DNA of 32,000 nt from contig LYOS01000004.1 in NCBI GenBank assembly GCA_001766815.1, forward strand, positions 163,610-195,609, written 5' to 3'. The position numbers and the translations under genes were made by a program. The stretch's first letter is position 1. Every line of letters begins with the position of its first letter. The notes under the pieces are model-generated. The model was not told the origin of the DNA. It saw only the letters and a list, made by a program, of their open reading frames with translations, and ran no database searches. Shown here one piece after another: positions 13,680 through 28,860 of this stretch. Origin of the DNA: Candidatus Syntropharchaeum caldarium (GTDB lineage: Archaea; Halobacteriota; Syntropharchaeia; Syntropharchaeales; Syntropharchaeaceae).

Positions 13680-14069
13680 CTATTTATGGCACTCACTATC
13701 CATACATCCCAAATCGCTGTGTCCTACTCCTCCCTTATCGGGGTGAACATTCGTATCCACACCCGAACCATGGCATTGTGTGCAACTTTCTACATACTGC
13801 GATATGTGATCCTCTTTATCTGCATGGCACTTTATACAGTTTGCCCAGTGACCTGATGGCTCAGCAGCCCCTGGGGTTACGGTTGGTGTTACTGTTGGTG
13901 CTGGTGTAGGAGTTGGGGTTGGAGCTGGTGGCGCCTCCTCCCCGAGACATCCTGCCATGAGCACAAGTGATACCACAATGGTTGCGATGATCAGTCTCCT
14001 CATAGCTTCACCTCTCTGTATGCAGCATCCATCTTCGTTGCGATATTTTTTTGTCATATTAGATCCCAT
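13680..14069 (-). CDS. small tri-haem c-type cytochrome, lipoprotein-type signal
   Basis: Two CxxCH motifs (CIKCH, CTQCH) and one CxxxxCH (CMDSECH) within about 55 residues, plus four further His as candidate distal ligands. Signal MRRLIIATIVVSLVLMAGC has a lipobox-like LMAGC, followed by the Pro/Thr linker APPAPTPTPTPAPTVTPTVTP. There are two candidate starts. ATG 14069 has leaderless-type spacing from a TATA box and conserved first codons. ATG 14003 lies 5 nt after a GAGGTGA SD and would give 108 aa. Confidence 0.75.
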   Translation of the reverse strand: MGSNMTKKYRNEDGCCIQRGEAMRRLIIATIVVSLVLMAGCLGEEAPPAPTPTPTPAPTVTPTVTPGAAEPSGHWANCIKCHADKEDHISQYVESCTQCHGSGVDTNVHPDKGGVGHSDLGCMDSECHK

Positions 14070-14098
14070 TTAAATCTTTATCTTCACATTATATATAT
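14070..14098 (-). promoter_or_regulatory. TATA-box promoter module of the cytochrome c gene (copy A of a duplicated module)
   Basis: The minus strand reads ATATATATAATGTGAAGATAAAGATTTAA followed by ATG (14069). The A/T octamer lies 22-29 nt upstream of the ATG, the spacing expected for a leaderless archaeal mRNA. Near-identical to 23320-23348. Confidence 0.45.
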
Positions 14099-14203
14099 GT
14101 TGGCATACTTTTCTTCAACATTTAATATTCTCTGGTGCATTCGCCAACCTCATACCGTAGAATAACTCTTTTACCATTATATCATATACCTTTATAGAGC
14201 ATG

Positions 14204-14249: not shown

Positions 14250-15317
14250 ATGATGAATTCAAGACATATCACGATAGCCCACGGCGCTGGCGGAGAGACG
14301 ATGCAGGAATTGATTAAAGGCACCATTCTGAGGTATCTCAGCGATCAGAAACAGGCAAAAAAGGTTGCTGTTCCCCTGGAAGCACTGGATGACTCTGCAG
14401 TTATAGACGATATTGTCTTCACGATAGATTCGCATACTGTTACACCGTTGTTTTTTCCTGGTGGTGATATTGGGAGCCTGGCTGTGAGTGGAACGATAAA
14501 CGACATCGCAGTAATGGGTGCTGAGCCAATTGCTTTATCGTCTGCTTTTGTCATCGAAGAAGGCTTTCTTTTTGATAAACTGGAAAAGATTTTAGAAAGT
14601 ATGTGCAGAACATGTGTGCAGGCTGGTGTTCCGATAATCACGGGTGACACAAAGGTGATGGAGAGTGGTGCTATTGAGAAGTTGACAATCACAACTTCTG
14701 CAATTGGAAGAAGAACTGAAATATTAGAGGAAAACCTGAGTGAAGTTAAAAAGTACAGAAAATTAAACGAGAGATGGGTGAGAGACTGCAATCTGAAAGA
14801 TGGAGATAGAATAATTGTTTCTGGGACGATTGGGGATCATGGGATCTCTTTAATCTCTTTCAGAGAGGGGTACGGTTTTGAGAGCGAAGTTCAATCAGAT
14901 ATCACGCCTCTGAACAGGATGATTGAAGAGGCACTGAAGGTGGGTGGTATCGTCTCGATGAAAGACCCAACAAGAGGAGGGCTGGCGAATGCGTTGAACG
15001 AACTGAGCGAAAAATCGAGTGTTGGAATTTTGATAGAAGAAGAGAAAGTTCCGATAAGAGAAGCTGTTAGATCGGCATGTGAGATGCTGGGGATGGATGC
15101 GTTGGAGATAGGAAATGAGGGAAAGGTTGTGATGGGTGTGGTAAAAGAAAAGGCAGAAGAGGTTTTAAAGTCATTGAGAAAGACAGAAGAAGGGAAGGAT
15201 GCAGAAATTATAGGCGTTGCAACGAAAAAAATCAAAGGTGTGGTGATGGAAACGAGTGTTGGTGGGAAAAGGATAGTAGAGGCGCCTGCTGGAGATCCTG
15301 TGCCGAGGATATGCTAA
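14250..15317 (+). CDS. hypE: hydrogenase maturation protein HypE (carbamoyl dehydratase)
   Basis: 355 aa with a PurM/AIR-synthase-like fold signature (HGAGG, DDSAV, TGDTKV). The C-terminus ends in the diagnostic PRIC motif. Confidence 0.92.
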   Translation: MMNSRHITIAHGAGGETMQELIKGTILRYLSDQKQAKKVAVPLEALDDSAVIDDIVFTIDSHTVTPLFFPGGDIGSLAVSGTINDIAVMGAEPIALSSAFVIEEGFLFDKLEKILESMCRTCVQAGVPIITGDTKVMESGAIEKLTITTSAIGRRTEILEENLSEVKKYRKLNERWVRDCNLKDGDRIIVSGTIGDHGISLISFREGYGFESEVQSDITPLNRMIEEALKVGGIVSMKDPTRGGLANALNELSEKSSVGILIEEEKVPIREAVRSACEMLGMDALEIGNEGKVVMGVVKEKAEEVLKSLRKTEEGKDAEIIGVATKKIKGVVMETSVGGKRIVEAPAGDPVPRIC

Positions 15318-16387
15318 CGTCCATGCCTCAACAGTATATTACAACTCCCTTCTCTGGATACCATACAGGGTCCAACAGGATGCTGAGGTGTGCAGGCTCC
15401 TCCAAAAAGTGGACACTCATCAGAATAGATGATTCCTCGCAGAACTTCTCCGCATTTGCACCCCTCTGGCTCTTTAAACTCTCTTTGCTGCAGTTCTTTT
15501 AACTCATCCTCAAATCGTTTTCTTGAATCGTATCTCTCAAATTCCTCTTTTAACGAGAAGCCACTCTCTGGTATAACAGAAAAACCTCTCCAGCCAAGAT
15601 CACTTTGCCTGAAAACCTCGTCCATCACCTTCAGTGCTTTCTTATTTCCTTCCTCTTTAACCACTCTTGTGTATTCATTTTCCACCCTTGCTTCGCCATT
15701 TTTTATCTGCCTGGCGATCATGTACACGCCCATTAACAGATCCAGTGGCTCAAATCCAGCGATTACCTGTGGAACGTTGAATTTTTGAGAGATGAGCTCA
15801 TAAGGCTTTGTTCCTATGATCGTACTCACATGCCCAGGGTCTATGAAACCATCGATCTTCAGCTCGCCCATTTTGAGCAGGACTTCCATCGCGGGTGGGA
15901 TTGCCCTGTGGCATGTCAAAACAGAGAAATTTTCGGGCGGGTTGTTTAGGATGGTAGAGGCAGTGGACGGAGCAGTGGTCTCAAATCCTATCGCCATGAA
16001 CACAAGATCTTTCTCTATCTTTTTTGCGATCTCGATGCTCTCATTTATGCTGTACACCGTTCTTATGTCACAACCCTCTGCTTTTGCATCAAAAAGCGAG
16101 CCATTCTCGCCTGGAACACGCAGCATGTCTCCAAAGGTTGCTATCGTCTTCCCTTTCATCGCTAAAGTAATCGCTTCATCAATCTCCATAGGTGTTGTAA
16201 CACAGACCGGACAACCCGGTCCCTGTCTGATCTCAACACCAGCATCACACAAGAGATCACTCAGTCCAAACCTGACCAGTGTGTCCTGATGTGTGCCACA
16301 GACATGCATGATCCTGATCTCCAGATTGAGCTCTTTCAATCGCTCTAAAATCCTTTTTGCGATATCTTTCTCCCGGTATCTAAACAT
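15314..16387 (-). CDS. hypD: hydrogenase maturation protein HypD
   Basis: 357 aa. HVCGTHQD, GPGCPVCVT, GFETTAP and DPGHVS motifs, and C-terminal CxxH-type cysteines. Its stop overlaps the hypE stop on the opposite strand. Confidence 0.92.
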   Translation of the reverse strand: MFRYREKDIAKRILERLKELNLEIRIMHVCGTHQDTLVRFGLSDLLCDAGVEIRQGPGCPVCVTTPMEIDEAITLAMKGKTIATFGDMLRVPGENGSLFDAKAEGCDIRTVYSINESIEIAKKIEKDLVFMAIGFETTAPSTASTILNNPPENFSVLTCHRAIPPAMEVLLKMGELKIDGFIDPGHVSTIIGTKPYELISQKFNVPQVIAGFEPLDLLMGVYMIARQIKNGEARVENEYTRVVKEEGNKKALKVMDEVFRQSDLGWRGFSVIPESGFSLKEEFERYDSRKRFEDELKELQQREFKEPEGCKCGEVLRGIIYSDECPLFGGACTPQHPVGPCMVSREGSCNILLRHGR

Positions 16388-16390
16388 CTA

Positions 16391-16765
16391 TCAACCCTCT
16401 ACCTCTACCACAATATTCTTTATTTTACACTCGTTTCCACCAACTATTTTAACGGAGGCACCACATGCTGGACATGTTAGCTTTGGGAAGATGTGAAGCG
16501 ATAAATCCTTTTCGTAATCAATTTCACCCTCATATTCACAGCTATTACAGCTAACCATGGCCTTCTTCTCTTCGATGATCAGTTCAGATCTCTCTAATAT
16601 AGAATTTCTGGATAAGACCTCATAGGCGAACTCCATCTGCTCTCTTCCGAAAAGCGTAAGCTCCCCTATCTCCAGGTGAACTTCTTTCACATCAGTTACA
16701 CTGTGCTTTTTCACCTCTTCCAATACAACATCCACAATTTGTGCCATTGTTGAAAATTCGTGCAT
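16391..16765 (-). CDS. hypA: hydrogenase nickel-insertion protein HypA
   Basis: The canonical N-terminus MHEFS (the Met1-His2-Glu3 Ni site) begins at ATG 16765. Zn-finger motifs CNSC...CPAC. The track ORF extends to a GTG at 16789, adding eight residues that would destroy the N-terminal Ni site. Confidence 0.85.
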   Translation of the reverse strand: MHEFSTMAQIVDVVLEEVKKHSVTDVKEVHLEIGELTLFGREQMEFAYEVLSRNSILERSELIIEEKKAMVSCNSCEYEGEIDYEKDLSLHIFPKLTCPACGASVKIVGGNECKIKNIVVEVEG

Positions 16766-16807
16766 GTTCACGCTACGGGTCGAAAACACCCGGTATTCCC
16801 ATCATAT

Positions 16808-17047
16808 TCAAAACTCCTCCCTTAAAACACCAACTCGATCCTCCAAAAGATCTCTCCACAGATCTAAAGTCTCCTTTGCCCCCTCTTCATCGATCACCTC
16901 TATCGCAAAACCAGCATGGACGATTACGTATTCCCCGGGTTTAACATCAACCAGTGATACGTTAACAGTCTGTAAAACCCCCCCAAAATCCACTCTCGCA
17001 TCGTTACCATCGATCTCCACGACTTTTCCTGGAACCGCAAGGCACAT
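16808..17047 (-). CDS. hypC: hydrogenase assembly chaperone HypC/HupF family
   Basis: 79 aa with the diagnostic N-terminus MCLAVPGKVVEI (essential Cys2). Confidence 0.92.
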   Translation of the reverse strand: MCLAVPGKVVEIDGNDARVDFGGVLQTVNVSLVDVKPGEYVIVHAGFAIEVIDEEGAKETLDLWRDLLEDRVGVLREEF

Positions 17048-17077
17048 AAATAAACCTCCATCCTGTCTGTTATATAT

Positions 17078-19273
17078 TTAACGTTCTAATCTCACACCAG
17101 CAACCGCATTCTGTCCAATGGATATTCCGCCATCCCCATTTGGAACTTGATCGTGCGTCAAAAATTCAAGACCACCATCTTCTACGAACTTCTCCACGAT
17201 CTTCACAATCGGTACATTATACGAAACACCGCCCGTGATACCAATATATCTAATCCCATTCGCATTGGCATTCTCAATTGCAACTTCTGTCATCTTCTTG
17301 AGCAAAGCATAAACGAAAGAATATGCCAGATCAGCTTTCCTGGACTTATCTGGATATTCGGATAACTGATCAAACAATGGAAGCGTTCTAACGATTTTAT
17401 CGTCTACCACTTCTGTTTCAAAATCAATTTTCCTCTCTCCTGCATTCAGATACCGCTCAAGTCTCATCGCGGGTTCCCCATCGTACGTCCTTTTAATTCC
17501 AATATCCAGATAACATGATAGTGCATCCAGAACCCGACCAAAGCTACTCGTTGTGGGGCTTTTCTTCATCAAATTTCTCAAAATATCCGTCTCTTTCTCT
17601 TCAAAATAACCTGAATTCTTCCCCAGCATCTCAAAAATCGCAAAAACAATTCTTCTTGGATCTCTGGTGGCTGCATCTCCTCCAATAAGTGGAATCTGCT
17701 CCAAATGCCCTATTCTCTCAAAAGAATCAAAAGAAGAGATCAGAATCTCTCCACCCCAGATACTTCCATCTGTGCCATATCCTGCCCCATCCAGCGTTAG
17801 AGCGATAATTGGTTCTTCTACCCCATTGTCAACCATCAAAGAGACAGCATGAGCCCAGTGATGCTGCACTTCAAATATTTCAGCAGAAAATCTTTCGGTC
17901 AGATCTCTTCCAAAGTGTCTGGTCAGATATCTTGGATGCAGATCAATGCCAATCCCGCTGATCTCTTTTATGTCCAGTAGATTTATCAGATGATCAGTGG
18001 CTGAGGCTAAAAATTCTAATGAGGGATAATAGCTTGTGTTCCCGATGTACTGTGTTATGTAGAGTTCCCCATCTGTTGAAACGCTCACAGAGACGTTTTT
18101 CTCTGCACCAACGCCTATCACGTTTTTTCTATGTGGAACTTTGATTTTATGCGGCACAAAACCCCTCGATCTTCTCAAAAAGAATTTTTTATCATTGTAA
18201 AAACGTATAACCGAATCATCAACTCTGTTTAATATTTCCCTGTTGTGCAGAAGATATACATCCACATTTAAGTTAAACGCATCTTCATTTCTGGTTATCA
18301 TCGGCTCTCCAGGCAGATTTGCAGAGGTCATTATTATGCCATCGCTCTTTAGATAGTGAAAAAAGATATGGTGAAGGGCTGTGTAAGGCAGATAAATTCC
18401 AGCGGTGTCAAGTCCAGGCGAGATGCCATCTAAAACCCCAAACTTATCTTCACTTTTCTTCAAAACAACTACTGGACGCTGGGGGGATCTCAAAGCCTCC
18501 TCTTCATGCTCCCCAATGTACACATACTCACTTGCAGTTTCCAGGTCTCTCATCATAACTGCAAAAGGCTTTGCCTCCCTCCTGTACCATTCTCTGAATC
18601 TTCCCACCTCCTCAAAGTTACAGACCAGGTGCATTCCACCCCAGCTCTTCATTATACCAGTTGCTCCATCATCTATGAACTTTGCAAATGTTTTAATCGG
18701 ATTGCCCTCAATAGCATTTTTCTCTTCATCATAGAGCATGTATTTTGGACCGCACTCTGGACAGGAGATTGTTTGGGCGTGAAATCTCCGATTTAAAGGA
18801 TCTCTGTATTCTTCTTTGCAATTCCTGCACAGGGAAAACTCGCTCATAGAGGTCTTCTCTCTGTCGTATGGCACATCTTTAATCAGAGAGAAGCGTGCAC
18901 CGCAGTTTGTGCAATTTGTGAATGGATAGAGATAACGGCGATTGCCTCTGTCAAATATCTCGTCAAGGCATTCATCACATGTCGCAGTATCTGGTGGAAC
19001 GAGGGAAGATTTTACACCTTCACTGCTTTCCAGGATTACAAAACCTTCATACTTTCCCTGCTCTTCTTTCAATGATATCTCGTCTATCGAGGCGTTATCA
19101 GGGATCTCTCTTCTTAGTGCCTTTAAGAACTCATCTTCTCTTTTATCAAGAAAGATCTCTACATTCGAGCCTTTGTTCAGTACATATCCATTTATCCCCA
19201 GTGAATTCGCAACTCTGTATACAGTAGGACGAAAACCAACTCCCTGTACTGTGCCCTTAACGAAAACCTTCAT
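17078..19273 (-). CDS. hypF: carbamoyltransferase HypF
   Basis: 731 aa. Acylphosphatase-like N-terminus (VKGTVQGVGFRPTVY). Two zinc-finger pairs (CDECLDEI...NCTNCGARF; CRNCKEEY...CPECGPKY). YrdC-like and Kae1-like C-terminal halves. Confidence 0.93.
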   Translation of the reverse strand: MKVFVKGTVQGVGFRPTVYRVANSLGINGYVLNKGSNVEIFLDKREDEFLKALRREIPDNASIDEISLKEEQGKYEGFVILESSEGVKSSLVPPDTATCDECLDEIFDRGNRRYLYPFTNCTNCGARFSLIKDVPYDREKTSMSEFSLCRNCKEEYRDPLNRRFHAQTISCPECGPKYMLYDEEKNAIEGNPIKTFAKFIDDGATGIMKSWGGMHLVCNFEEVGRFREWYRREAKPFAVMMRDLETASEYVYIGEHEEEALRSPQRPVVVLKKSEDKFGVLDGISPGLDTAGIYLPYTALHHIFFHYLKSDGIIMTSANLPGEPMITRNEDAFNLNVDVYLLHNREILNRVDDSVIRFYNDKKFFLRRSRGFVPHKIKVPHRKNVIGVGAEKNVSVSVSTDGELYITQYIGNTSYYPSLEFLASATDHLINLLDIKEISGIGIDLHPRYLTRHFGRDLTERFSAEIFEVQHHWAHAVSLMVDNGVEEPIIALTLDGAGYGTDGSIWGGEILISSFDSFERIGHLEQIPLIGGDAATRDPRRIVFAIFEMLGKNSGYFEEKETDILRNLMKKSPTTSSFGRVLDALSCYLDIGIKRTYDGEPAMRLERYLNAGERKIDFETEVVDDKIVRTLPLFDQLSEYPDKSRKADLAYSFVYALLKKMTEVAIENANANGIRYIGITGGVSYNVPIVKIVEKFVEDGGLEFLTHDQVPNGDGGISIGQNAVAGVRLER

Positions 19274-19938
19274 CTGTCCCCCTCGATCAACGCAGATAAC
19301 AGCTCTTCCACTCCGGTGCCGTGTTTCGCATCGGTCATAAAGAACTTTCCATGAGGGGACAGTCTTTTGAAATCCTCTAAAATAACAGCAGGGTCAACCT
19401 CAATTAGCTCTGCCAGATCGATCTTGTTCAATACAACAAAATCGGTTTGTGCAAAGATCAACGGGTGTTTTCTTACCATGTCATCACCCTCGGTCACCGA
19501 TATAACGACAACTCTTTTCTCAGTTCCTAAAGGAAAATCAACAGGACAAACGAGATTTCCAACGTTTTCAATGAATAATATCTCCAATTTACTGAGATCT
19601 AATGATTCTAAGGCATGATTTATTAAATGGGCATCTAAATGGCATTCTTTCCCAGTATTTACATTTATAGCCTGAACCCCAAGTCTTAAAAACCTTTTAT
19701 AATCGTCATCTCCTGCGACATCCCCCGCTATGGTCCCAGCTCTCATCCCTCTTTCACTCAGCAGATCTATCATCCTCTCGATCAGCGTGGTTTTTCCAGA
19801 CCCTATAGACCCTAAAATGTCGTATGCTTTTACCTCGTGACTTTCCAATACAGACCTGTTCTCCTTCGCAATTCTTCTGTTTACACCAAGAATATCGCTT
19901 TCCATCTGTATATCCACGGTCTTATGCATATGTATCAC
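19270..19938 (-). CDS. hypB: hydrogenase nickel-incorporation GTPase HypB
   Basis: 222 aa. P-loop GSIGSGKTTLIE, IENVGNLVCP and LNKIDL motifs. No His-rich N-terminus. ATGA overlap with hypF. Confidence 0.9.
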   Translation of the reverse strand: MIHMHKTVDIQMESDILGVNRRIAKENRSVLESHEVKAYDILGSIGSGKTTLIERMIDLLSERGMRAGTIAGDVAGDDDYKRFLRLGVQAINVNTGKECHLDAHLINHALESLDLSKLEILFIENVGNLVCPVDFPLGTEKRVVVISVTEGDDMVRKHPLIFAQTDFVVLNKIDLAELIEVDPAVILEDFKRLSPHGKFFMTDAKHGTGVEELLSALIEGDR

Positions 19939-20425
19939 AATAATATAGATCTTGCACTGAATTTAAGCGTGATAATTCATCAAGTATTCGCCTGACAACC
20001 TCTGGAATTGTTTTTTCCACCTCTGGTGTTAATCCGATGCCGAATTCATCACTTTTTTCAACCTCAATCCCCACAATCGTGATATCATCTGGCATCGATT
20101 CTGGCATAATCGTCTCTCCTATCCTGAGCACATCGACCAGTCCAAGATCGTGAAGTGAGAAGTTAACAGATTCTGGTTCTGGCAGATCATTGCCCTTAAT
20201 GATATGGATCGTTCCGATATCACCACCGGTCCTCACAGCATCGACAATGATGATCTTCTCCGCGTCTTCGATCAGGTTCAGGATTGAAAGCCCACCAGTA
20301 CCCGCATCGACCAATTCCACATAATCGGGCAACTCCTCCTTCCTGAGTTCCTCTAAAACGTAGATTCCAATGCCATCATCTAAAGCCAGAGGGTTTCCAC
20401 AGCACAGGATCAGAACTTTTTTCAA
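19922..20425 (-). CDS. [NiFe]-hydrogenase maturation endopeptidase (HyaD/HybD/VhoD family)
   Basis: 167 aa. N-terminal LILCCGNPLALDDGIG motif (GN-x4-DDG-x-G). Positioned directly after the large subunit. Confidence 0.85.
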   Translation of the reverse strand: MKKVLILCCGNPLALDDGIGIYVLEELRKEELPDYVELVDAGTGGLSILNLIEDAEKIIIVDAVRTGGDIGTIHIIKGNDLPEPESVNFSLHDLGLVDVLRIGETIMPESMPDDITIVGIEVEKSDEFGIGLTPEVEKTIPEVVRRILDELSRLNSVQDLYYCDTYA

Positions 20426-20431
20426 TTTATC

Positions 20432-21985
20432 TTAAACCACCTTGACCTCGTACTTCTTTCTGCTATCCCTCAGGTCCACTGTATGCACGGCACATGCTAT
20501 ACATGGATCGAACGAGCGGACGGTATGCAGGATCTCAATCGGATTGTCTGGAGCAGTTACTGGTGTACCAACTACAGCCTGTTCAACAGCCCCCAGCTTG
20601 CCATCATCATCACGTGGCGAGCAATTCCATGTTGTTGGGACTACGAGCTGGTATCTCTCCAGTTTACCATCTTTTATACTTGCCCAATGCCCCAGTGATC
20701 CTCTGGGTGCCTCTGTCAAGCCTACCCCGGTTGCTGAACTCGGCAGTTCTGCAGGCTCATAGAACTTCCCATCTATGTCAACACCAAGAAGCCATTCCTT
20801 CAGTTTGGCGAGAACCCTCACAGCCTCATGAAGTCTCGCCAGTGTTCTTGTGTACACATTTGCACCAAGTTTGGTAGCCAGGTCAAGAACCAGGGGGTCT
20901 CTGTCATTGATCATTCTTGCCAGTGGACCCACCTCTGTGGGCATGTCATTATATCGTGGAGCCTTCATCCAGGTATACTTATCTTTGCTCGTGAAGTCTG
21001 GATCCTCAATTGGTTCTGTGAACCCCTCGTTAGGATGCTTTCCACCAGTATAGCCACTATACCATGAATACGCTATGTACTCAGTTACTTTTTCTGGATC
21101 AAAGGCATTGAAGTCTCCATCATAAAATCCGGGCTTCAACCATCTCCCATCCCCCTCATAAAATGCGCCATATGAGAGGAATCCACACTCACCTGCCCCG
21201 TACCCACCATATGCATGAAGTCCGAGGTTGATATCTTCAATCGGGCCCCCATATCGAATCAAAAGACCTATATCGCTATTTGCATGGCTTTCGCTTTCGT
21301 CTAACCAGGCCACCACATCATCCAGGCTCCTGTTCTCCAACCACCGATCAACGGAGCACCCAAGTACCTGTTCTTCTACGAAGCTCTTACTCTCTAACCA
21401 CAGTGAATATGCTTTAACAATGTCTCCAACGTCAGGCCTAACTGTAACTCCGCCAGGTATATACGTCATGTGATGGGGCATCTTCCCACCGAAGATGGCT
21501 ATGATCTCGTGGAGCTTTTTTCTGACCATAACTGCCCTGATCCATGAGCTACCTGTAAACGCAGCAAATCTACGGCTAAGTTCATTATATACACTGCCGG
21601 CCCCCGCCGCCTCTAAAATGTCTTTGTATACAGGATTTGCCAGATCTGGTGCCCATAATGCATAAAAGTGTGTTGCATGACTCATTATATTATTGGAGCC
21701 CAATATGATGTTCCTGATCAGTTTCGCATTTTCTGGCACAGAAGCATCAAATGCATCATCCAGACACCGTATCGATGCTGTGGCATGCGCTACTGGACAG
21801 ACTCCACATGCTCTTTGAGTTATGATAGAAGCATCTCTTGGATCCCTTCCTATCAGTATGTTCTCCAGTCCCCTGTACATCATGCCAGAACTCCATGCAT
21901 CCGTTACTTTTCCCCCATCTACATTTGCTCTGATCTTTAAATGCCCTTCAATTCGTGTTAACGGATCGATGGTCACTTCTACCAT
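20432..21985 (-). CDS. [NiFe]-hydrogenase large subunit (group 1-like, membrane/extracytoplasmic uptake type)
   Basis: 517 aa. N-terminal RIEGH. Ni-Fe ligand motifs QRACGVCPVAH and C-terminal DPCIACAVH, followed by a 16-aa extension (TVDLRDSRKKYEVKVV) of the kind removed by the endopeptidase. It pairs with a Tat-signal small subunit. Confidence 0.92.
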   Translation of the reverse strand: MVEVTIDPLTRIEGHLKIRANVDGGKVTDAWSSGMMYRGLENILIGRDPRDASIITQRACGVCPVAHATASIRCLDDAFDASVPENAKLIRNIILGSNNIMSHATHFYALWAPDLANPVYKDILEAAGAGSVYNELSRRFAAFTGSSWIRAVMVRKKLHEIIAIFGGKMPHHMTYIPGGVTVRPDVGDIVKAYSLWLESKSFVEEQVLGCSVDRWLENRSLDDVVAWLDESESHANSDIGLLIRYGGPIEDINLGLHAYGGYGAGECGFLSYGAFYEGDGRWLKPGFYDGDFNAFDPEKVTEYIAYSWYSGYTGGKHPNEGFTEPIEDPDFTSKDKYTWMKAPRYNDMPTEVGPLARMINDRDPLVLDLATKLGANVYTRTLARLHEAVRVLAKLKEWLLGVDIDGKFYEPAELPSSATGVGLTEAPRGSLGHWASIKDGKLERYQLVVPTTWNCSPRDDDGKLGAVEQAVVGTPVTAPDNPIEILHTVRSFDPCIACAVHTVDLRDSRKKYEVKVV

Positions 21986-21987
21986 TT

Positions 21988-23175
21988 TTATTCCCTCCTA
22001 TCCTTGAGATATCGAGCTGCTGCGAGGGTCCCTGCCCCAACCGCCGCTGCTGCACCGAATCCTGGTGCCACCTCTTCTGTTGCCGTTGGCGTTCCTGTTG
22101 GCGTTGCCGTGGGTGTAACTGGCGTTGCCGTTGGTTTTTCAACAGATGATGTTGCTGTGGCCCCTGATGGAAGATAAAACGGAGATTTACCATCCGGGAA
22201 GTCTGGCTCAGCACAACCAATACATGGTGCGCCTGCCTGGGTGCACATGTTTCTACCGTTGTTCCAGAGCCTCAATGGGCACTCAGCCGAAGTAAATGGA
22301 CCCTTGCATCCAAGCCCATATAAACAGTACTCCATTCCAAATTTCAGAGCTTCATAATAGCCCCTTCTCGGACATGTCTCATGGATTGACTCTCCAAAGA
22401 ACGCTGTGGGTCTATTATACTCATCCAGCTCTATATCACCCGTTTTTCCAAGTATAACCGCAGCCAGTGTGGACATGACCCAATCAGGATGAGTTGGGCA
22501 ACAGGGGAGATTTATCACAGGCAATCCAGCCTTTGATCTATAGTTCTCCCCCAAAATCCCACCTTTCTCCTTTCTATAGAACTGGAGCCCGCTACAATCA
22601 CTTGGATTCGGATCTCCCGCAGGTATTCCACCATAAGAGGCACAGGATCCAACAGCCACTGTAGCCAGTGAGTGGGGTGCCAGATCTTCTATGATCTTCT
22701 TAAATGGTTCTCCACCAACCCTGCAGAAATTCCCTGTGCCATCTGGACCCCGCGGGATAGCACCTTCAACAACCAGCACGAAGTCCTTTTCACTCTCTTT
22801 GATCAGCTCCAAAGCATAGTTCGCATTTAAATCAGCGTTCTCTACAGGCACTCCATCAACAAAAAGACCCTGTTGAATCATCACTGTCTCCCAGTATTGT
22901 GGAACGACGTTCAGATCCATTATCGCCTGGATCACATCAGGTTGTTCTGCATTCAGGAAGGAGATGGTGCATCCCGCACAGTCCTGTCCTTCTAACCATA
23001 TAAGATTGGTACTGGTGCTACTTTCCATAAGTCCTCGTACAATCTCTGTCTTATATGTCCCCAGAAAAATACTGGCGCCCACTGCTCCCACAACTTTAAG
23101 AAAAGTCCTTCTATCCAGATTCAGTATATCTATATTCCTTAGATCTTCTATTTTTGTTAATTTAAGATCCTTCAT
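21988..23175 (-). CDS. [NiFe]-hydrogenase small subunit, Tat-exported, with C-terminal Thr/Pro linker and PGF-CTERM signal
   Basis: 395 aa. Twin-arginine signal LDRRTFLKVVGAVGASIFLG. Fe-S ligand motifs WLEGQDCAGC, GSCASYGG, HETCPRRG, CLYGLGCKGP and CIGCAEPDFPD. The C-terminus is ...KPTATPVTPTATPTGTPTATEEVAPGFGAAAAVGAGTLAAARYLKDRRE. Confidence 0.92.
   Translation of the reverse strand: MKDLKLTKIEDLRNIDILNLDRRTFLKVVGAVGASIFLGTYKTEIVRGLMESSTSTNLIWLEGQDCAGCTISFLNAEQPDVIQAIMDLNVVPQYWETVMIQQGLFVDGVPVENADLNANYALELIKESEKDFVLVVEGAIPRGPDGTGNFCRVGGEPFKKIIEDLAPHSLATVAVGSCASYGGIPAGDPNPSDCSGLQFYRKEKGGILGENYRSKAGLPVINLPCCPTHPDWVMSTLAAVILGKTGDIELDEYNRPTAFFGESIHETCPRRGYYEALKFGMEYCLYGLGCKGPFTSAECPLRLWNNGRNMCTQAGAPCIGCAEPDFPDGKSPFYLPSGATATSSVEKPTATPVTPTATPTGTPTATEEVAPGFGAAAAVGAGTLAAARYLKDRRE
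21991..22065 (-). other. PGF-CTERM archaeosortase-type sorting signal (last 25 codons of the small subunit)
   Basis: PGFG, then a 14-residue Ala/Gly-rich hydrophobic stretch, then the basic tail RYLKDRRE. It is preceded at 22066-22167 by a Thr/Pro-rich linker. This matches the tripartite PGF-CTERM architecture by eye; no HMM was run. Confidence 0.6.
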
Positions 23176-23319
23176 TTAAATCCCCCCAAAGTATCCAGAG
23201 TTGTGGCTGATCCCGGCCGTCTCCATTGTCTCGAACGCGATAGCAGTCCTGCTGAACGTACGCCTCGACAGTTCAACATCATCAAATAAATTATACTTTT
23301 CAGTCACATTTGACCCCAT
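23176..23319 (-). CDS. 47-codon upstream ORF / leader peptide preceding the hydrogenase small subunit (hypothetical)
   Basis: My translation is MGSNVTEKYNLFDDVELSRRTFSRTAIAFETMETAGISHNSGYFGGI*. The TAA at 23178-23176 abuts the small-subunit ATG (23175) in the same frame. A TATA-like octamer lies 22-29 nt upstream of its ATG. The first nine codons are shared with the cytochrome c ORF, differing mainly by synonymous changes. It is too short for the supplied ORF track. Confidence 0.45.
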   Translation of the reverse strand: MGSNVTEKYNLFDDVELSRRTFSRTAIAFETMETAGISHNSGYFGGI

Positions 23320-23348
23320 TATAAACTTTAACTTCACAATATATATAC
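23320..23348 (-). promoter_or_regulatory. TATA-box promoter module of the hydrogenase operon (copy B of a duplicated module)
   Basis: The minus strand reads GTATATATATTGTGAAGTTAAAGTTTATA followed by ATG (23319). The spacing and sequence match 14070-14098. A purine-rich GAAAAG (BRE-like) lies immediately upstream. Confidence 0.45.
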
Positions 23349-23508
23349 TTTTCATTCACTATATAAAAAGAACACTATACATGATTATAATTCATGCATA
23401 TAAAGGCTTAAACGGTTCCTGCAAATCCCATTGAAAACTGAGTCGCCCATGCTAAAAAATGCCCGGATAAGAACTTATGCCGCATCCTGCGAGCCGCTTC
23501 TCGCATCA

Positions 23509-25497
23509 TCACTCATCTTTGGTGTTCATCCTCTGTTCAAGTGATACAAGCGGTCTACATCGTTCACAGTAGCGAAGCGGTTCCACATCTATCCCCTGCT
23601 CGCATAATCTCTTTTTAAGTGTTTCATACAGCGCCTCGGTTGTGTATACCTCCCCACACCTGGCACATTTCACGGGTTTGGATGATGCGAGTTCATCCTC
23701 TTCCTGCCTGATCGTCTTTGAAAGATCCAAAACTGCCTCAATCCTGATTGCACTCTCTGGGCATGCTTTTTCACATAATCTACAGTTGATGCACTCTCCG
23801 TGTCTGAAAAAGATTCTATTCTCCTCCTTTCTCAGCGCTCCTGCAGGGCAGACTGCAGTACATGCATCACAGACCGTGCATCTTGAATCAATCGTTGCGA
23901 CACCAAAGGCACTGGATGAGATCTTGAGTTCGGGTATTTTACCGGTTTTATCTGAGAGACTCCTGATTAAAGCAAGAAAAACCGCTCGATTTTTGAAATC
24001 ATCGAGTTCACACATCTTCTTCTTTCGAATTCTGGACGGTGTGAGCTGGCCGCTAAATTCTGTGATTGCTTCTGTGAAGGCATCGGGATCAAATACTTGA
24101 GTTATGAGCATCCTATCCTTGAGATCTAAGCCGTCAAGACATTTCCTGATAAAATCCTGATCAATCCCAGTCTCACCAAGAATTATAACTCCGTCTGCAC
24201 CCGCATCAAGCGCACGGAGAATGTGTTCCACAGATAGAGCCAATGTTGAGGGGAGAAAAAGGGGAAGTATGGGTGGATAGCTCATTCTGAGCCGTCCAAC
24301 CTTATCGAGTAGCTTTTTTCCTGCTTTCAGGTCCGTGAATAAGATTATGCGGGGTTTGAGATCTTTTGCGCCTGTAAGTAGCCGTTCGATCATTGTAAAA
24401 ACTCGTTCATTTGGGAAAAAAGTTAATTTCAGGAGTGATAATGGACAGAGCGAAGCACATAATCCACACCCTTCGCACGATATCTCGTCGATCTCAAGTT
24501 TTCCATCTGGCTTGCGTGTTATCGCACCATTCGGACAGGTGCAGAGTGTGCAGCCTGAAAGCCCATGTGCGTATGATGCACAGTCTGTGAGATCGTGATC
24601 CAGATACCTTGGCTTCTCGATACTATCAAAGTTGCTTACAACCTCTGCAACAAGCGATGCAGGATCTTCTTCGTTGGCGAGATGTATTCCACTTCGTATG
24701 GTTGTGAGCGATTCATCTTCGAGTATTATCTGTCCAGCACCAATCAGCCTGCTCTCGGGGGTGAGGTTGATGGCATCAGCCGGACAGACCCCAATGCACT
24801 TCCCGCACAGTGTACACGCATCTGTGATAGAATATATCATACCATCAAGAATCGCTCTATCATCACAAACTTCGATACACCGTCCGCATTCAATACAGTG
24901 ATTCTGATCAAGTCGATTCGGATCAAACTCAACTTCAAACGCACCTATTTTTCCATAGATTGCCTTTGGTTCACCAATATAAAATTTAATTCCGTTCAGG
25001 CTGTTTAAATTTTTCGGATCTGATGTGAGGATTGAAACATCTGAAATCTTCGCAAGAGATGGTGCAAGATTGTAGACACCCTTTCCACCGATCATAATCA
25101 GAGATCTCCCAACATTCCGCTGGATTGTCCCTTCAATTTCTGGATCTTCCATCAGTGCAAGATTGATTATACCTTTTGCCTTCTGCGTGCCATCACGCTT
25201 GTTATGAACCCATCCACACGCTTCTCTGATATCCACAAGCTTTGGCGGTGGCAATTCAAGCGTTCTGGCAAGGTCATCAAAGATCTCCTGTTTCTTTTCG
25301 CAACCCGCAATCAATATCCTCTCGGGTTTAAAATTTCTGATATAATATGTGATATGGTTCAATCCATCAGCATGACATAGAAAATCATGCGTCTCAACAA
25401 CGCAGAGCTCATCTAATTTTCCAAACGTTTTTTTGAGATCTTTGAATGAGAGTTTGATCGTGCCTGCACAGGAACAGAGAAAGAGACCTGTATGCAA
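23509..25497 (-). CDS. multi-[4Fe-4S] protein (polyferredoxin / HdrA-MvhD-like architecture), cytoplasmic
   Basis: 662 aa. At least five ferredoxin-type motifs (CIECGRCIEVC, CTLCGKCIGVCP, CEGCGLCASLCP, CTVCDACTAVCP, CINCRLCEKACP). N-terminal LFLCSCAG Cys motif. A central region RIILFTD...ALDAGADGVIILGE resembles a Cys-depleted MvhD/FlpD-like domain. C-terminal CxxC...CxxC ribbon (CARCGE...CERCRP). No signal peptide. TTG start 5 nt after a GAGGTGAT SD that overlaps the tatA stop. Confidence 0.6.
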   Translation of the reverse strand: MHTGLFLCSCAGTIKLSFKDLKKTFGKLDELCVVETHDFLCHADGLNHITYYIRNFKPERILIAGCEKKQEIFDDLARTLELPPPKLVDIREACGWVHNKRDGTQKAKGIINLALMEDPEIEGTIQRNVGRSLIMIGGKGVYNLAPSLAKISDVSILTSDPKNLNSLNGIKFYIGEPKAIYGKIGAFEVEFDPNRLDQNHCIECGRCIEVCDDRAILDGMIYSITDACTLCGKCIGVCPADAINLTPESRLIGAGQIILEDESLTTIRSGIHLANEEDPASLVAEVVSNFDSIEKPRYLDHDLTDCASYAHGLSGCTLCTCPNGAITRKPDGKLEIDEISCEGCGLCASLCPLSLLKLTFFPNERVFTMIERLLTGAKDLKPRIILFTDLKAGKKLLDKVGRLRMSYPPILPLFLPSTLALSVEHILRALDAGADGVIILGETGIDQDFIRKCLDGLDLKDRMLITQVFDPDAFTEAITEFSGQLTPSRIRKKKMCELDDFKNRAVFLALIRSLSDKTGKIPELKISSSAFGVATIDSRCTVCDACTAVCPAGALRKEENRIFFRHGECINCRLCEKACPESAIRIEAVLDLSKTIRQEEDELASSKPVKCARCGEVYTTEALYETLKKRLCEQGIDVEPLRYCERCRPLVSLEQRMNTKDE

Positions 25498-25510
25498 GCG
25501 GTATCACCTC

Positions 25511-25807
25511 TCATTGAGAAGCGAGCTTTTCTCGAATTAGCATCTTTATATCTTCATCACTCATGCCTTCGATATCGATACCAAGATCTTTTGCAGCTTT
25601 CCTCAGGCGTGCAGATTCAGATTCTTCGGTGCTCATTGCCAGATTCTCGCCCACCTTGAGTTCCCTCTCAACTTCCATTTTTGCTTTCTTGAACTCGCCC
25701 ATTGCACTCCCTAAACTCCTTGCAAGTTCAGGCACCTTTGATGCACCAAATAGCAGCAAAATAATGGCTAAAATTAAAATTATCTCAGTCGGTCCAAGTC
25801 CAAACAT
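25511..25807 (-). CDS. tatA: twin-arginine translocase subunit TatA/E
   Basis: 98 aa. [42 protein letters not shown] is the canonical TatA TM helix, hinge (FG) and amphipathic helix. GAGGTAAG SD. Confidence 0.9.
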
Positions 25808-25905: not shown

Positions 25906-26976
25906 ATGCAGGAGATATACAGGCACAGGTATAAACTACTCATCTTTGTCGTCTCACTAACTATCATAGCGGGAATTCTCTCATACAGTGAACTGCGTGC
26001 ACCATGGTGGATGAATCTTTCCGTGCTCGGTTCGATCATTATAGTCACTGCGTTTATCAGAAGAATCGATGATGACCTTATACGAATGATTTCCTACATC
26101 CTGATGGGATTTTCTGCTTACTCACTCGTGGGAGCAGAGTACGTTGCATCCTACGACTATAAAGAGCCTGGTATGATGTTTGCAGACCTTGTGCCAACGC
26201 TTTTCTTTGCAGTAGTTACCTCAGTGGCGGTTTTGATCACAACAGAGGATAAAGATATACATGGATACACCTTCGCTGGTTGTGGGATCGCAGTTATGCT
26301 TGTAATGATAACAAAAGATCTCTATCGCCTGAATGTCCAGGGAGTACTCCTGTTGATGGCAGCCCTCTGGGTACTGATTCCATTACTGTGGTGCTACCTC
26401 TTCTCAGAGCTCTTCAAACCGAACGTGAAGGTTATAGAACGTCTGACAAGGTCTATCGGCGGAGCAATCATCACGTCACCCCTGTACGGCGTCATTGCAG
26501 GTGTGACATTCATCGCTGCTTATGGGGCTGTACCCAGCCTTCAATCGATGGTGGAAGCAATAAGAAACAATCTCTTCGGGCTTGGAACGGTTCTACTCAA
26601 TTATGCACTTTCCCACGTCGTCATTCTGACAGGATCCTACATGCTACTCGGGCTTATCATGTACTCGCTCGGATATGAGAAGAAGATCGCGGTTGTCAAT
26701 AAGAAGAAAGAGATCGTTTATACCAGAGAGGAACGAGAGAAGAAGGAACTTGAGCGTACTAAAACTGAGGAGGCGGATCCTTACAACCAGCTACTTGGCG
26801 AGATGAAACGAACCAGAATTGAACTGAAAGGTGAAGATAAGATAAAAGCATTTCAGGTGCTGCAACGATTAACAAATGAGTATCACATACTCCATGCAAG
26901 ATATGGGGATACTAAAATGAGTGTGGAGGTAAAAAATCTCTTGAGATCGCTTGAAGAGGAGATCTCGTCGAGGTAA
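25906..26976 (+). CDS. polytopic membrane protein with C-terminal charged coiled-coil, unknown function
   Basis: 356 aa. About 7-8 hydrophobic segments by eye over residues 1-260, then a Lys/Glu-rich helical tail (KKKEIVYTREEREKKELERTKTEE...LLRSLEEEISSR). I recognise no family motif. Confidence 0.5.
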   Translation: MQEIYRHRYKLLIFVVSLTIIAGILSYSELRAPWWMNLSVLGSIIIVTAFIRRIDDDLIRMISYILMGFSAYSLVGAEYVASYDYKEPGMMFADLVPTLFFAVVTSVAVLITTEDKDIHGYTFAGCGIAVMLVMITKDLYRLNVQGVLLLMAALWVLIPLLWCYLFSELFKPNVKVIERLTRSIGGAIITSPLYGVIAGVTFIAAYGAVPSLQSMVEAIRNNLFGLGTVLLNYALSHVVILTGSYMLLGLIMYSLGYEKKIAVVNKKKEIVYTREEREKKELERTKTEEADPYNQLLGEMKRTRIELKGEDKIKAFQVLQRLTNEYHILHARYGDTKMSVEVKNLLRSLEEEISSR

Positions 26977-26981
26977 CCTCT

Positions 26982-27851
26982 ATGTTAATCGAAGAAAACA
27001 GGTACCTAAAAATAATCGAAACAAGCAAGATAAAGGGACAGGAGGACGTCTACCTTAAATCCATGCGTTACATCAATCTTGGCTACCCTATTCTTTTATT
27101 TGGACCTCCTGGTTGTGGTAAAACCTCGATTGCACGCCACATCCTCGATAGTCTTGATCGTGAGTATTTTACCATCGAGGCAAATGAAAGTATGACTGAG
27201 TACCAGCTCATAGGTGGTTTTCACCCTTTATCAATGTCTGCAAGCAAAGAGGTTGCGGATGAGTTTATGTACAAGGATGGCATTGTTGCAAGAGCGATAA
27301 TGCATGGAAAAAATCTTCTCATTGATGAGCTGACACGCGCACCAAGTTCGGCTTTCTCCTCGATTTTTTTACTGCTTTCGCATGGAATACTCACACTTGA
27401 ACATCGCGAGATGGTTCTCAGAAAACCAGATGATTGGGTGTTTATAGCGACAGCAAACTTTGGTGACGTTGGATCATTCAAGCTGAGTAGCGCGCTGAAG
27501 CGGAGATTTATACCGATCTATGTCTCATACCCGAAGCGGTACGTGGAGGAGGCACTGATACGTGAGTATGCCCCAGGGGTTGGTGAAAAGGTTGCATCGC
27601 GCATTCTCGATTTTGCCGAGGAGACAAGACGTATGTGGAAGGAAGAAGGAGCGCTTCCACAGGGACTCTCGACCGATGGCATCATCAAGATGGCAAGATA
27701 CTGTGAGTTACTGGCTCGAGAAGGAATAGATGACAGAACCGCCTTCTCAGACGCAGCTTTTCATCAGGGGGTTGTCATCGCAGATGAAACCGATCAGGTC
27801 TCGATTCAGCTTGTGAATGAGCTTGCCCTCCGTCTTACGGCGGGACTTTGA
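26982..27851 (+). CDS. MoxR/AAA_5-type AAA+ ATPase (CbbQ/NorQ/GvpN-like)
   Basis: 289 aa. Walker A GPPGCGKTS, Walker B LLIDELTRA, sensor-1 region IATANFG, LKRRF arginine motif. A single AAA+ module of the size typical of MoxR-class chaperones. Confidence 0.75.
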   Translation: MLIEENRYLKIIETSKIKGQEDVYLKSMRYINLGYPILLFGPPGCGKTSIARHILDSLDREYFTIEANESMTEYQLIGGFHPLSMSASKEVADEFMYKDGIVARAIMHGKNLLIDELTRAPSSAFSSIFLLLSHGILTLEHREMVLRKPDDWVFIATANFGDVGSFKLSSALKRRFIPIYVSYPKRYVEEALIREYAPGVGEKVASRILDFAEETRRMWKEEGALPQGLSTDGIIKMARYCELLAREGIDDRTAFSDAAFHQGVVIADETDQVSIQLVNELALRLTAGL

Positions 27852-28860
27852 GCGGGTGTGGTTTATGCCAGAAATCAACACTCCAGAAAGTCTATGTGTG
27901 CAGTGCATGAAAAATCCCAATGACCCGATGATCATGCAGCAACTTCAGAATGAGTGCAGGAGAATCGGAAGCCGCATGATCTCAGCGTCATCCTATATCG
28001 TCCCAAAAGAGGTCAGGATGGCTTATACACCTTTTAATGGTGGAGGAACTATCGCCTATGGGAAGACGATTCTGGAGTTTGCATCACATGGCAGGAGCAT
28101 AGATAATGTGATCTGTCGCTCAAAGATCTCGGTCACAAAAAAGTTCTCAGCGATGGTGATCCTCGACACATCAAACTCGATGACTGGCTGGTGGAGGGCC
28201 AGACGATTTAATCGAGAAATGAATGAGGAATCGAGTCCACAGACTGCGGCAAAGATCGCAACACTCGCTTTTCTACAGGGATTTGATCGAAGACTCGATG
28301 TTGGAGTGCTTTTCTTCTCGCATACGGCAATGGGACCATTCGAGCGGCGAGAGCGGGTGTACAGGGAGATTGTTGTGCCCAACGGCATGGGTGGAAGCAG
28401 GATGGATTTGGCACTTGAGAGATTGATTAGGCGGCGGTGGACCAAACGTGAAGGGACAAAACTCCTTGTTGTAATAACAGACGGCGTGATTGAGAGTGGA
28501 TTAAAGACACCTGGTGTTCCATACTTGTCCGAGACCGATATACCTGGAGGTACAAACAGAGATCAGCAGGTCAGAGCTGACACGCTTGTTCAGGAGCGCA
28601 CACTCAAATACTTCAGACAGATTACAGCCGATGGGGTCAGCACCCTCTACGTTCCGATCTTCGTGGATGAAAATATGGCCTCATGGCGCAGTGGGGCGTA
28701 TTCAGCAAGAGAGATTGTCAAGGAACTTGAAAGGATTGGAATCGAAGTATCACCTGTTTATAGCAGTGAAAAAATGGTAGAAACGCTCTTTATGGGGTTG
28801 AATCGCGTTGCAAAAAAGAGCGGGTATCAGACAAGTCATGGTTCGCTTCTCATGGGATGA
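27817..28860 (+). CDS. von Willebrand factor A (VWA) domain protein, partner of the AAA+ ATPase
   Basis: 347 aa. MIDAS motif VILDTSNSMTG (DxSxS), with later LLVVITDG supplying the Thr/Asp. The ATG at 27817 overlaps the AAA+ gene by 35 nt. There is an alternative ATG at 27865. Confidence 0.7.
   Translation: MSLPSVLRRDFERVWFMPEINTPESLCVQCMKNPNDPMIMQQLQNECRRIGSRMISASSYIVPKEVRMAYTPFNGGGTIAYGKTILEFASHGRSIDNVICRSKISVTKKFSAMVILDTSNSMTGWWRARRFNREMNEESSPQTAAKIATLAFLQGFDRRLDVGVLFFSHTAMGPFERRERVYREIVVPNGMGGSRMDLALERLIRRRWTKREGTKLLVVITDGVIESGLKTPGVPYLSETDIPGGTNRDQQVRADTLVQERTLKYFRQITADGVSTLYVPIFVDENMASWRSGAYSAREIVKELERIGIEVSPVYSSEKMVETLFMGLNRVAKKSGYQTSHGSLLMG

Follow-up and report, generated by a model that had tools for sequence, protein, structure and literature searches.

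Short upstream open reading frames (uORFs) and leader peptides whose stop codon overlaps the next start are known to couple translation by termination and reinitiation in both archaea and bacteria. The capture of a promoter together with a 5' fragment of what has become a pseudogene is also a known kind of event. Which of these is represented in front of a [NiFe] hydrogenase operon of Ca. Syntrophoarchaeum caldarius is the subject considered here. In a 32-kb stretch of its DNA (the window, whose six-frame translation comes to 63,996 residues) an open reading frame (ORF) of 47 codons on the minus strand extends from ATG 23319-23317 to TAA 23178-23176, encodes MGSNVTEKYNLFDDVELSRRTFSRTAIAFETMETAGISHNSGYFGGI*, and is followed, in the same frame and with no spacer, by the ATG (23175) of the hydrogenase small-subunit (SSU) gene. 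A first-pass annotation, made from the sequence alone, had pointed to this ORF, to its in-frame TAA-ATG junction, to the LSRRTF that it encodes and to its GC-rich core, all of which are there in the sequence, and had entertained a leader peptide or a free mimic of a twin-arginine translocation (Tat) signal. Comparison with relatives removes the apparent novelty, and hydrogenase operons need not be credited with a new class of Tat-mimicking leader peptide. The ORF is very probably the leftover promoter, start and first ~33 codons of a gene for an enzyme resembling the alpha subunit of formate dehydrogenase (FdhA-like) that was replaced by the hydrogenase cluster: a scar, not a new regulatory element.

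The evidence comes from contigs of relatives found by searching with the upstream neighbour, a 662-aa polyferredoxin/FlpD-domain protein. In an 80% relative (L098) and in three ~54% relatives (L099-L101, Ca. Argoarchaeum ethanivorans among them) the order is tatA, the 662-aa Fe-S protein, a PF02613 TorD/NarJ-like chaperone, in some an AsnC regulator, a molybdopterin oxidoreductase of ~924 aa, a 171-aa 4Fe-4S subunit and a small c-type cytochrome. By NCBIfam the large subunit comes closest to formate dehydrogenase alpha, at 552 bits where the equivalog cut-off is 666, and the small Fe-S subunit to FDH3 beta, with the chaperone in the TorD/DmsD Tat-proofreading family. It is the N-terminus of the oxidoreductase, MAEKYNLLDEVKLSRRTFTKATVALGAMAATGVG... 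in L098, that the stub in front of the SSU resembles, with 16/33 residues identical at a BLASTP E of 4e-12 and with Val5 of the stub (GTG 23307) opposite Met1. The same L098 protein searched against the window by tblastn matches 23307-23206 (E=1.3e-8). The likeness extends to the DNA, where blastn aligns window 23398-23250 with L098 3071-3223 at 81% (153 nt), spanning the TATA box, the remnant of a Shine-Dalgarno (SD) sequence, the start and the first 19-20 codons. That remnant is GGGG at 23316-23313, for AGGGGAT in L098, and around the RRTF codons the two DNAs are identical across TCGAGGCGTACGTTCA.

How far the inherited part reaches can be read from a codon-anchored comparison with L098. Nucleotide identity is 85% over codons 1-18 (the n-region with RRTF), falls to 49% over codons 19-33 (the h-region, where shuffles give 11.5±2.9 of 45 positions and 0/5000 reach the observed 22) and is 27%, the random level, over codons 34-44 (the tail). 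From this drop the fdhA-derived part ends near 23209, and comprises codons 5-37 of the ORF (23307 to ~23209). No homology is detectable for the last 11 codons, except that the final four are the SD and spacer of the hydrogenase gene. When the 924-aa protein of L099 and the fragments of L098 were used as tblastn queries, only residues 1-34 were found in the window; with neither Molybdop_Fe4S4 nor molybdopterin-binding domains present, what is there is a fragment and not a member enzyme. The FdhA-like gene of L098 is itself split, into ORFs of 94 and 355 aa, by a frameshift in a G run at 3425-3450 that has 5 G, one fewer than the 6 with which EPWGDHPVNAGS stays in frame; either the assembly miscounted a homopolymer or the gene is beginning to decay into a pseudogene in that lineage too.

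The same ancestry accounts for the motif that first drew attention. L-S-R-R-T-F-S-R, encoded at 23271-23248, matches the Tat consensus S/T-R-R-x-F-L-K at an n/h boundary, and RRTF occurs twice in the six frames of the window, in the ORF and, 51 codons away, in the genuine SSU signal. Simulated with the ORF's own composition, 47 stop-free codons have a chance P of ~0.08, while RRTF inside such an open run has one of ~8e-4, so the motif is not a chance feature and needed an explanation, which homology provides. It is a true Tat motif that came from the FdhA-like enzyme and has since decayed. The GC content, ~0.58 at 23180-23260 against 0.2-0.3 in the flanks, had been taken as the mark of coding sequence. 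The patch is real, but its source is the Ala/Gly-rich h-region of the FdhA-like signal: n- and h-region have a GC of 0.37 and 0.60 in the window and of 0.39 and 0.56 in the orthologue, a match which shows the profile to be inherited.

Upstream of the ORF the old gene order survives with one casualty. Window 25900-23504 is collinear with L098 29-2423 at 83% nucleotide identity, and a piece of the chaperone gene, then the promoter and the 5' end of the FdhA-like gene, follow in the same order. The chaperone piece, window 23503-23435, aligns with L098 2876-2944 at 75% (blastn), and by tblastn at 54% over 24 aa (E=1e-4); relative to L098, ~452 nt of the gene have been deleted. Downstream, beyond the hydrogenase cluster, the other end of the replaced operon persists. 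The DNA there aligns with the fdhB end and cytochrome c start of L099 and L100, and the fdhB end overlaps the cytochrome start exactly as in Argoarchaeum. The cytochrome c itself is recognised by BLASTP at E=1e-7, and the relatives' cytochrome matches window 14003-13770 by tblastn. The present order is thus tatA, the 662-aa Fe-S protein, scraps of torD, promoter copy A, fdhA' (~33 codons), the SSU and large-subunit genes, hycI, hypB, F, C, A and D; then hypE on the other strand, and promoter copy B with fdhA'' (5 codons) joined to 'fdhB (~14 codons) and cytochrome c. Table 1 collects the positions.

Table 1. Features of the hydrogenase locus and of the remains of the fdh operon around it (positions in the window)
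Feature	Position	Strand	Remark
47-codon ORF	23176..23319	(-)	stub of FdhA-like molybdopterin oxidoreductase pseudogene plus junction codons
RRTF (AGG CGT ACG TTC)	23254..23265	(-)	twin-arginine motif from FdhA-like signal peptide
GTG	23305..23307	(-)	opposite the ATG with which the intact FdhA-like gene begins in the 80% relative
Captured fdhA-like promoter region	23320..23398	(-)	B recognition element (BRE)-like GAAAAG 23353-23348; TATA TATATATA 23347-23340
Hydrogenase SD and spacer, GGGGGGAT-TTAA	23176..23187	(-)	supplies the stub's last four codons and TAA
[NiFe] hydrogenase SSU (Vht/Vho-like)	21988..23175	(-)	heads the hyd/hyp cluster that took the place of fdhAB
TorD/DmsD-family (PF02613) chaperone scraps	23435..23516	(-)	ATG overlapping the stop of the 662-aa gene, and a 69-nt internal piece
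662-aa polyferredoxin/FlpD-domain protein	23509-25497	(-)	conserved upstream scaffold (23509..25807)
TatA	25511-25807	(-)	conserved upstream scaffold
Copy B of the fdhA-like TATA-SD-ATG module and 5 codons (ATGGGATCTAATATGACAAAAAAATAT)	14043..14112	(-)	
Last ~14 FdhB-like codons (GATGCTGCATACAGAGAGGTGAAGCTATGA) and intact lipoprotein-type multihaem cytochrome c gene	13680..14042	(-)	surviving tail of the fdh operon

The hyd/hyp cluster is therefore flanked by two direct copies of one promoter. Copy A (23352-23290) and copy B (~70 nt) align over 56 nt at ~84%, with a score of 58 where shuffles give 19±2.5, and a 26-nt pattern has 2 matches in the window where 0 are expected. An equivalent of ATG 23319 is present in copy B also. 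The junction at copy B recurs in an independently assembled Logan contig (L102), which has a 125-aa version of the cytochrome c ORF. Candidates for the origin of the duplication are Campbell-type integration followed by deletion, and templated insertion at a repair junction.

In copy A the TATA box is centred ~24-27 nt upstream of ATG 23319, and it is conserved in L098 and in copy B. An A/T-only octamer had earlier been placed at this spacing; the octamer at 23348-23341 includes one G and the real A/T-only run is 23347-23338, but the suggestion of TATA spacing is upheld, the TATA-to-start module being conserved in the 80% relative and having its second copy in the window. In a Methanosarcina species TATA boxes lie 20-30 nt upstream of +1 (PMC2838876), and by this archaeal analogy a transcription start site (TSS) at ~23316-23320 can be predicted from the TATA spacing only. 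An 11-mer, TGAAAAGTATA, occurs twice on the minus strand, 51 nt apart, at 23344-23354 in the BRE/TATA region and at 23293-23303 in the stub codons for T-E-K-Y, the GAAAAGTATA part of the second copy being kept in L098 as well; judged by its letters, this second copy could be an internal TATA-like element with a TSS near 23265. An Rfam scan of 22900-23700 at E<=10 found no family, only two sub-threshold C/D-box chance matches outside the ORF, and scans for sigma-70 promoters and terminators are uninformative for an archaeon.

The ORF had been called unlisted, which it is not. A further in-frame ATG at 23355 gives a 59-aa version that appears in the mechanical ORF listing, and GenBank, whose records OFV67552.1-OFV67554.1 match the window, holds the identical 59-aa sequence as OFV67553.1 (hypothetical protein SCAL_001471, Ca. 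Syntrophoarchaeum caldarius). The conserved TATA box is downstream of ATG 23355, which makes the annotated 59-aa product unlikely on the mRNA, and SCAL_001471 would be better described as a fragment of a gene. The possible products of the stub begin MGSNVTEK... or are (M)TEKYNLFDDVELSR.

What of the abutment of TAA and ATG? The SSU gene has relatives at 98%, 79% and 57-60% identity, and DNA homology with the 79% relative L062 begins only at the SD, GGAGGGAT there and GGGGGGAT here. A 59% relative (L067), which has no uORF, reads AGGAGGGTTTAAATG at its SSU start; SD-TTTAAATG is part of the hydrogenase gene, TTTAAATG being found in that relative too. With an SD of its own, and with AGGAGGGTTTAAATG in a relative that is free of the uORF, the junction looks like the native initiation region of the hydrogenase gene. 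The observation that the last codons of the ORF double as an SD for the SSU was thus correct, GGGGGGAT at 23187-23180 being the hydrogenase gene's own SD.

Conservation of the ORF stops at the level of strains. Those at 98% carry it, and in the three strains compared there are only 3 substitutions in the stub, two adjoining ones that exchange Ala and Val and one that is synonymous. The TAA recurs in three further assemblies, among them L061 and L072, which come from other samples and contain the ORF in full; this disposes of the idea that the TAA is an assembly error, and a read-through isoform, also suggested earlier, would have to cross a genuine stop. In the 79% relative (L062-L065) the 144-nt spacer before the SSU bears no trace of the ORF, and no such ORF precedes the SSU of the 57-60% relatives, where a gene for HycI or for an unrelated small membrane protein is found instead. 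A 78-aa ORF upstream of the L067 SSU, considered as a counterpart, is that unrelated membrane protein. A word-indexed search of 5.8e9 proteins with the peptide had the 98% strain variant as its sole match. A full HMMER scan of 1.84e9 representatives gave the strain variant and two weak matches, to proteins of 1601 and 3603 aa, which are taken as spurious. The peptide search and upstream alignments that had been proposed as checks accordingly show a frame that is not conserved beyond the 98% strains.

As a Tat signal the stub is damaged. Its h-region TAIAFETMETAGIS has two Glu, for ATVALGAMAATGVG in the orthologue, ALGAMAATGVG having become AFETMETAGIS with 12/15 codons changed non-synonymously, and over its best 12 residues the Kyte-Doolittle mean reaches 0.86, where the genuine SSU signal has 2.11, so that it does not have the uncharged hydrophobic h-region of 12-20 residues expected of such signals. 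No Pfam family matches the 47-aa peptide, TAT_signal (PF10518) not even at E<=10, whereas TAT_signal finds the N-terminus of the intact orthologue at E=0.011 and that of the SSU at E=0.0058, both below the gathering score. There is no folded passenger, the ORF stopping 25 residues after RRTF. The n-region has fared better: against the 80% relative it has 5 non-synonymous and 2 synonymous codon changes, and 13/18 residues are identical to the FdhA-like signal. Three of the four defining features of a Tat signal are absent from the stub, as is the conservation by which a regulatory uORF would be recognised.

These observations can be assembled into a sequence of events. In the Ca. Syntrophoarchaeum caldarius lineage the fdhA-like gene from about codon 34, and the fdhB-like gene to its last ~14 codons, were replaced by a ~9-kb cluster of [NiFe] hydrogenase and hyp maturation genes, and the chaperone gene was gutted by deletion. 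The captured fdhA-like promoter would now drive the hydrogenase operon, transcription starting near 23316-23320, and the stub would form a ~145-nt leader from which the SSU is presumably translated by means of its own SD. Leaders of this size are ordinary in Methanosarcina acetivorans, a methanogen that belongs to a different order and has 5' untranslated regions (UTRs) of 51-137 nt as a rule (PMC2838876). Since a start close to the promoter has been kept (ATG 23319, or else GTG 23307 at the ancestral position, with its GGGG remnant), the stub may well be translated even now, into a short peptide whose export is unlikely. Ribosomes stopping at the TAA-ATG could incidentally help SSU initiation, no sign of selection for this having been found, and its position in frame with the SSU is most simply a 1-in-3 accident.

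Several points weigh against this reading. The frame is open for 47 codons, for which chance gives ~0.08, and its codon score is mildly coding-like, both of which would be explained by a young relic or by selected translation. The promoter and n-region are as conserved with respect to the 80% relative (81-85%) as are functional neighbours (83%), and this could reflect constraint. The reading does not by itself explain where promoter copy B came from or by what mechanism the rearrangement proceeded, and a TSS at the predicted place, a translated stub and any coupling are presumptive.

A different account is that the stub has been exapted: translated from a leaderless ATG 23319 or from GTG 23307, it would set the level of hydrogenase translation by termination-reinitiation at the TAA-ATG. 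In its favour are a promoter-proximal start inherited from a real gene, the open codons with their TAAATG junction, and codon usage. The whole-codon score (density ratio ~4) is at the 28th percentile of genuine genes, within their range, though 9.6% of spurious frames score as high. The synonymous-codon score, at -0.03, is nearer to that of spurious ORFs (0.005) than of genuine genes (0.10). Between the window and L061 the single changed codon is non-synonymous, and the density of substitutions between strains is that of the surroundings (1.39 per 100 nt in the stub, 0.97-1.66 in the neighbours). The putative leader RNA has no unusual structure for coupling to open (z=+0.40), the SSU has an SD in common with relatives that lack the uORF, and no relative beyond the 98% strains has the ORF in front of its orthologous hydrogenase, on which the earlier proposal of a regulatory leader peptide founders. 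Such an exaptation is unlikely. Somewhat more doubtful again is its specific corollary, that the SSU would be loaded with ribosomes through termination on the stub and that hydrogenase expression would hinge on translation of what is left of its predecessor.

A further reading, akin to the mimic suggested earlier, has a free peptide of 43-47 aa acting in trans, by binding a Tat proofreading chaperone or TatA/TatC and so modulating export of the hydrogenase. SRRTF with a conserved n-region, and tatA 2.3 kb upstream, speak for such a mimic, but the motif was inherited from the FdhA-like enzyme and did not evolve here, the adjacent gene for the cognate TorD/DmsD-like chaperone lies in scraps, the h-region with its two Glu is degraded to the point where TAT_signal finds nothing at E<=10, and there is no conservation outside near-identical strains; we regard the notion as very improbable. 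Equally hard to sustain is descent from the SSU's own older N-terminus, whether by tandem duplication of its 5' end or by a nonsense codon cutting off an older start. Two RRTF motifs 51 codons apart in the same frame do suggest it, and tblastn with the stub lands on SSU signal peptides at several loci. Beyond RRTF, though, the similarity is marginal, BLASTP against the N-terminus of the locus's own SSU finds nothing, and the 79% relative has no trace; the match to the FdhA-like gene, by a wide margin the better one and seen in DNA, promoter and synteny as well, refutes it. Shuffles of the flanks with RRTF fixed gave P=0.025-0.057 (profile) and 0.05-0.08 (Smith-Waterman) for a decayed SSU signal peptide, a candidate dropped at the FdhA-like match. 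The earlier mention of a relic was right in kind, but the gene is an FdhA-like molybdopterin oxidoreductase and not the hydrogenase SSU. Finally, the idea that the ORF arose by chance within a long AT-rich 5' UTR, or through misassembly, is refuted by the BLASTP homology, the rarity of RRTF in such a run and the recurrence of the sequence in further assemblies, notwithstanding the usual length of UTRs in M. acetivorans and the P of ~0.08 for 47 open codons.

The incoming gene cluster has features of its own. The SSU, identical to OFV67552.1 (mis-named there '[Ni-Fe]-hydrogenase large subunit'), has its own Tat signal with RRTF at codons 22-25, a Thr/Pro linker and a hydrophobic C-terminal anchor. 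A scan of a genome contig collection found no close SSU relative, the best being at 43%. Window 14250-23175 has a full hyp set (hypB, F, C, A, D and E) and no cytochrome b gene. Relatives L066 and L067 have Ni_hydr_CYTB, and L070 a NapC/NirT-type cytochrome c. That the retained cytochrome c and the 662-aa polyferredoxin serve as redox partners of the hydrogenase is speculation. In the 79% relative the hydrogenase cassette comes after a 179-aa glycosyltransferase fragment (L062 2317-2856), and such a difference in upstream neighbours between close relatives is consistent with the cassette having moved. Divergent from tatA, at 25906-28860 on the plus strand, are a 356-aa membrane protein without a Pfam match and two ORFs which, judged by eye from their sequence, look like an AAA/MoxR-like ATPase and a von Willebrand factor A (vWA)-like protein.

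What was lost as a novelty is in part regained as a by-product. A predicted Tat-exported, outward-facing Fdh-like module was swapped in a butane-culture archaeon, of a lineage of syntrophic alkane oxidisers, for a Tat-exported [NiFe] hydrogenase together with its maturation genes, and this inside a conserved scaffold of tatA, polyferredoxin and c-type cytochrome, with reuse of the old promoter, which illustrates how such modules are exchanged. Genomes of anaerobic methanotrophic archaea (ANME) generally lack Vht-like hydrogenases (PMC9012536), so a clean and datable swap bears on which electron carriers (a formate-like substrate, H2, cytochromes) these syntrophs can use.

How then does the locus stand beside the systems it recalls? 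With coupling uORFs it shares a short leader ORF whose stop abuts the downstream start (TAAATG), here explained by the ribosome-binding site of the downstream gene; it differs in that the stub is not conserved across orthologous operons, has no dedicated ribosome-binding site, precedes an SSU whose SD is independent, and originated as a gene fragment. With the Tat signals of the formate dehydrogenase/DMSO-reductase family that are served by TorD/DmsD chaperones it has in common S-R-R-T-F and a homologous n-region, once beside a chaperone gene and tatA, but the stub is without a passenger, has two Glu in its h-region and no match to the TAT_signal hidden Markov model (HMM), and its chaperone is destroyed. 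The hydrogenase resembles the Vht/Vho operons of Methanosarcinales, vhtGAC(D), in the long Tat signal (xDxLxLDRRTFLK) and C-terminal anchor of its SSU and in the large-subunit and endopeptidase genes that follow, while the cluster here lacks a cytochrome b gene, has the full hyp set and occupies what was once an fdh operon, with tatA/polyferredoxin on one side and a c-type cytochrome gene on the other. Against the background of 5' pseudogene fragments with promoter capture, the locus is unlike in two respects, a stub that is open, in frame, to the start of the new gene and a second copy of the promoter beyond the cluster. In the rest it is like them: promoter, start and first ~33 codons are kept in their original context with the remainder gone, the chaperone neighbour is decaying, and the incoming cluster, foreign or relocated, sits directly downstream with a ribosome-binding site of its own.

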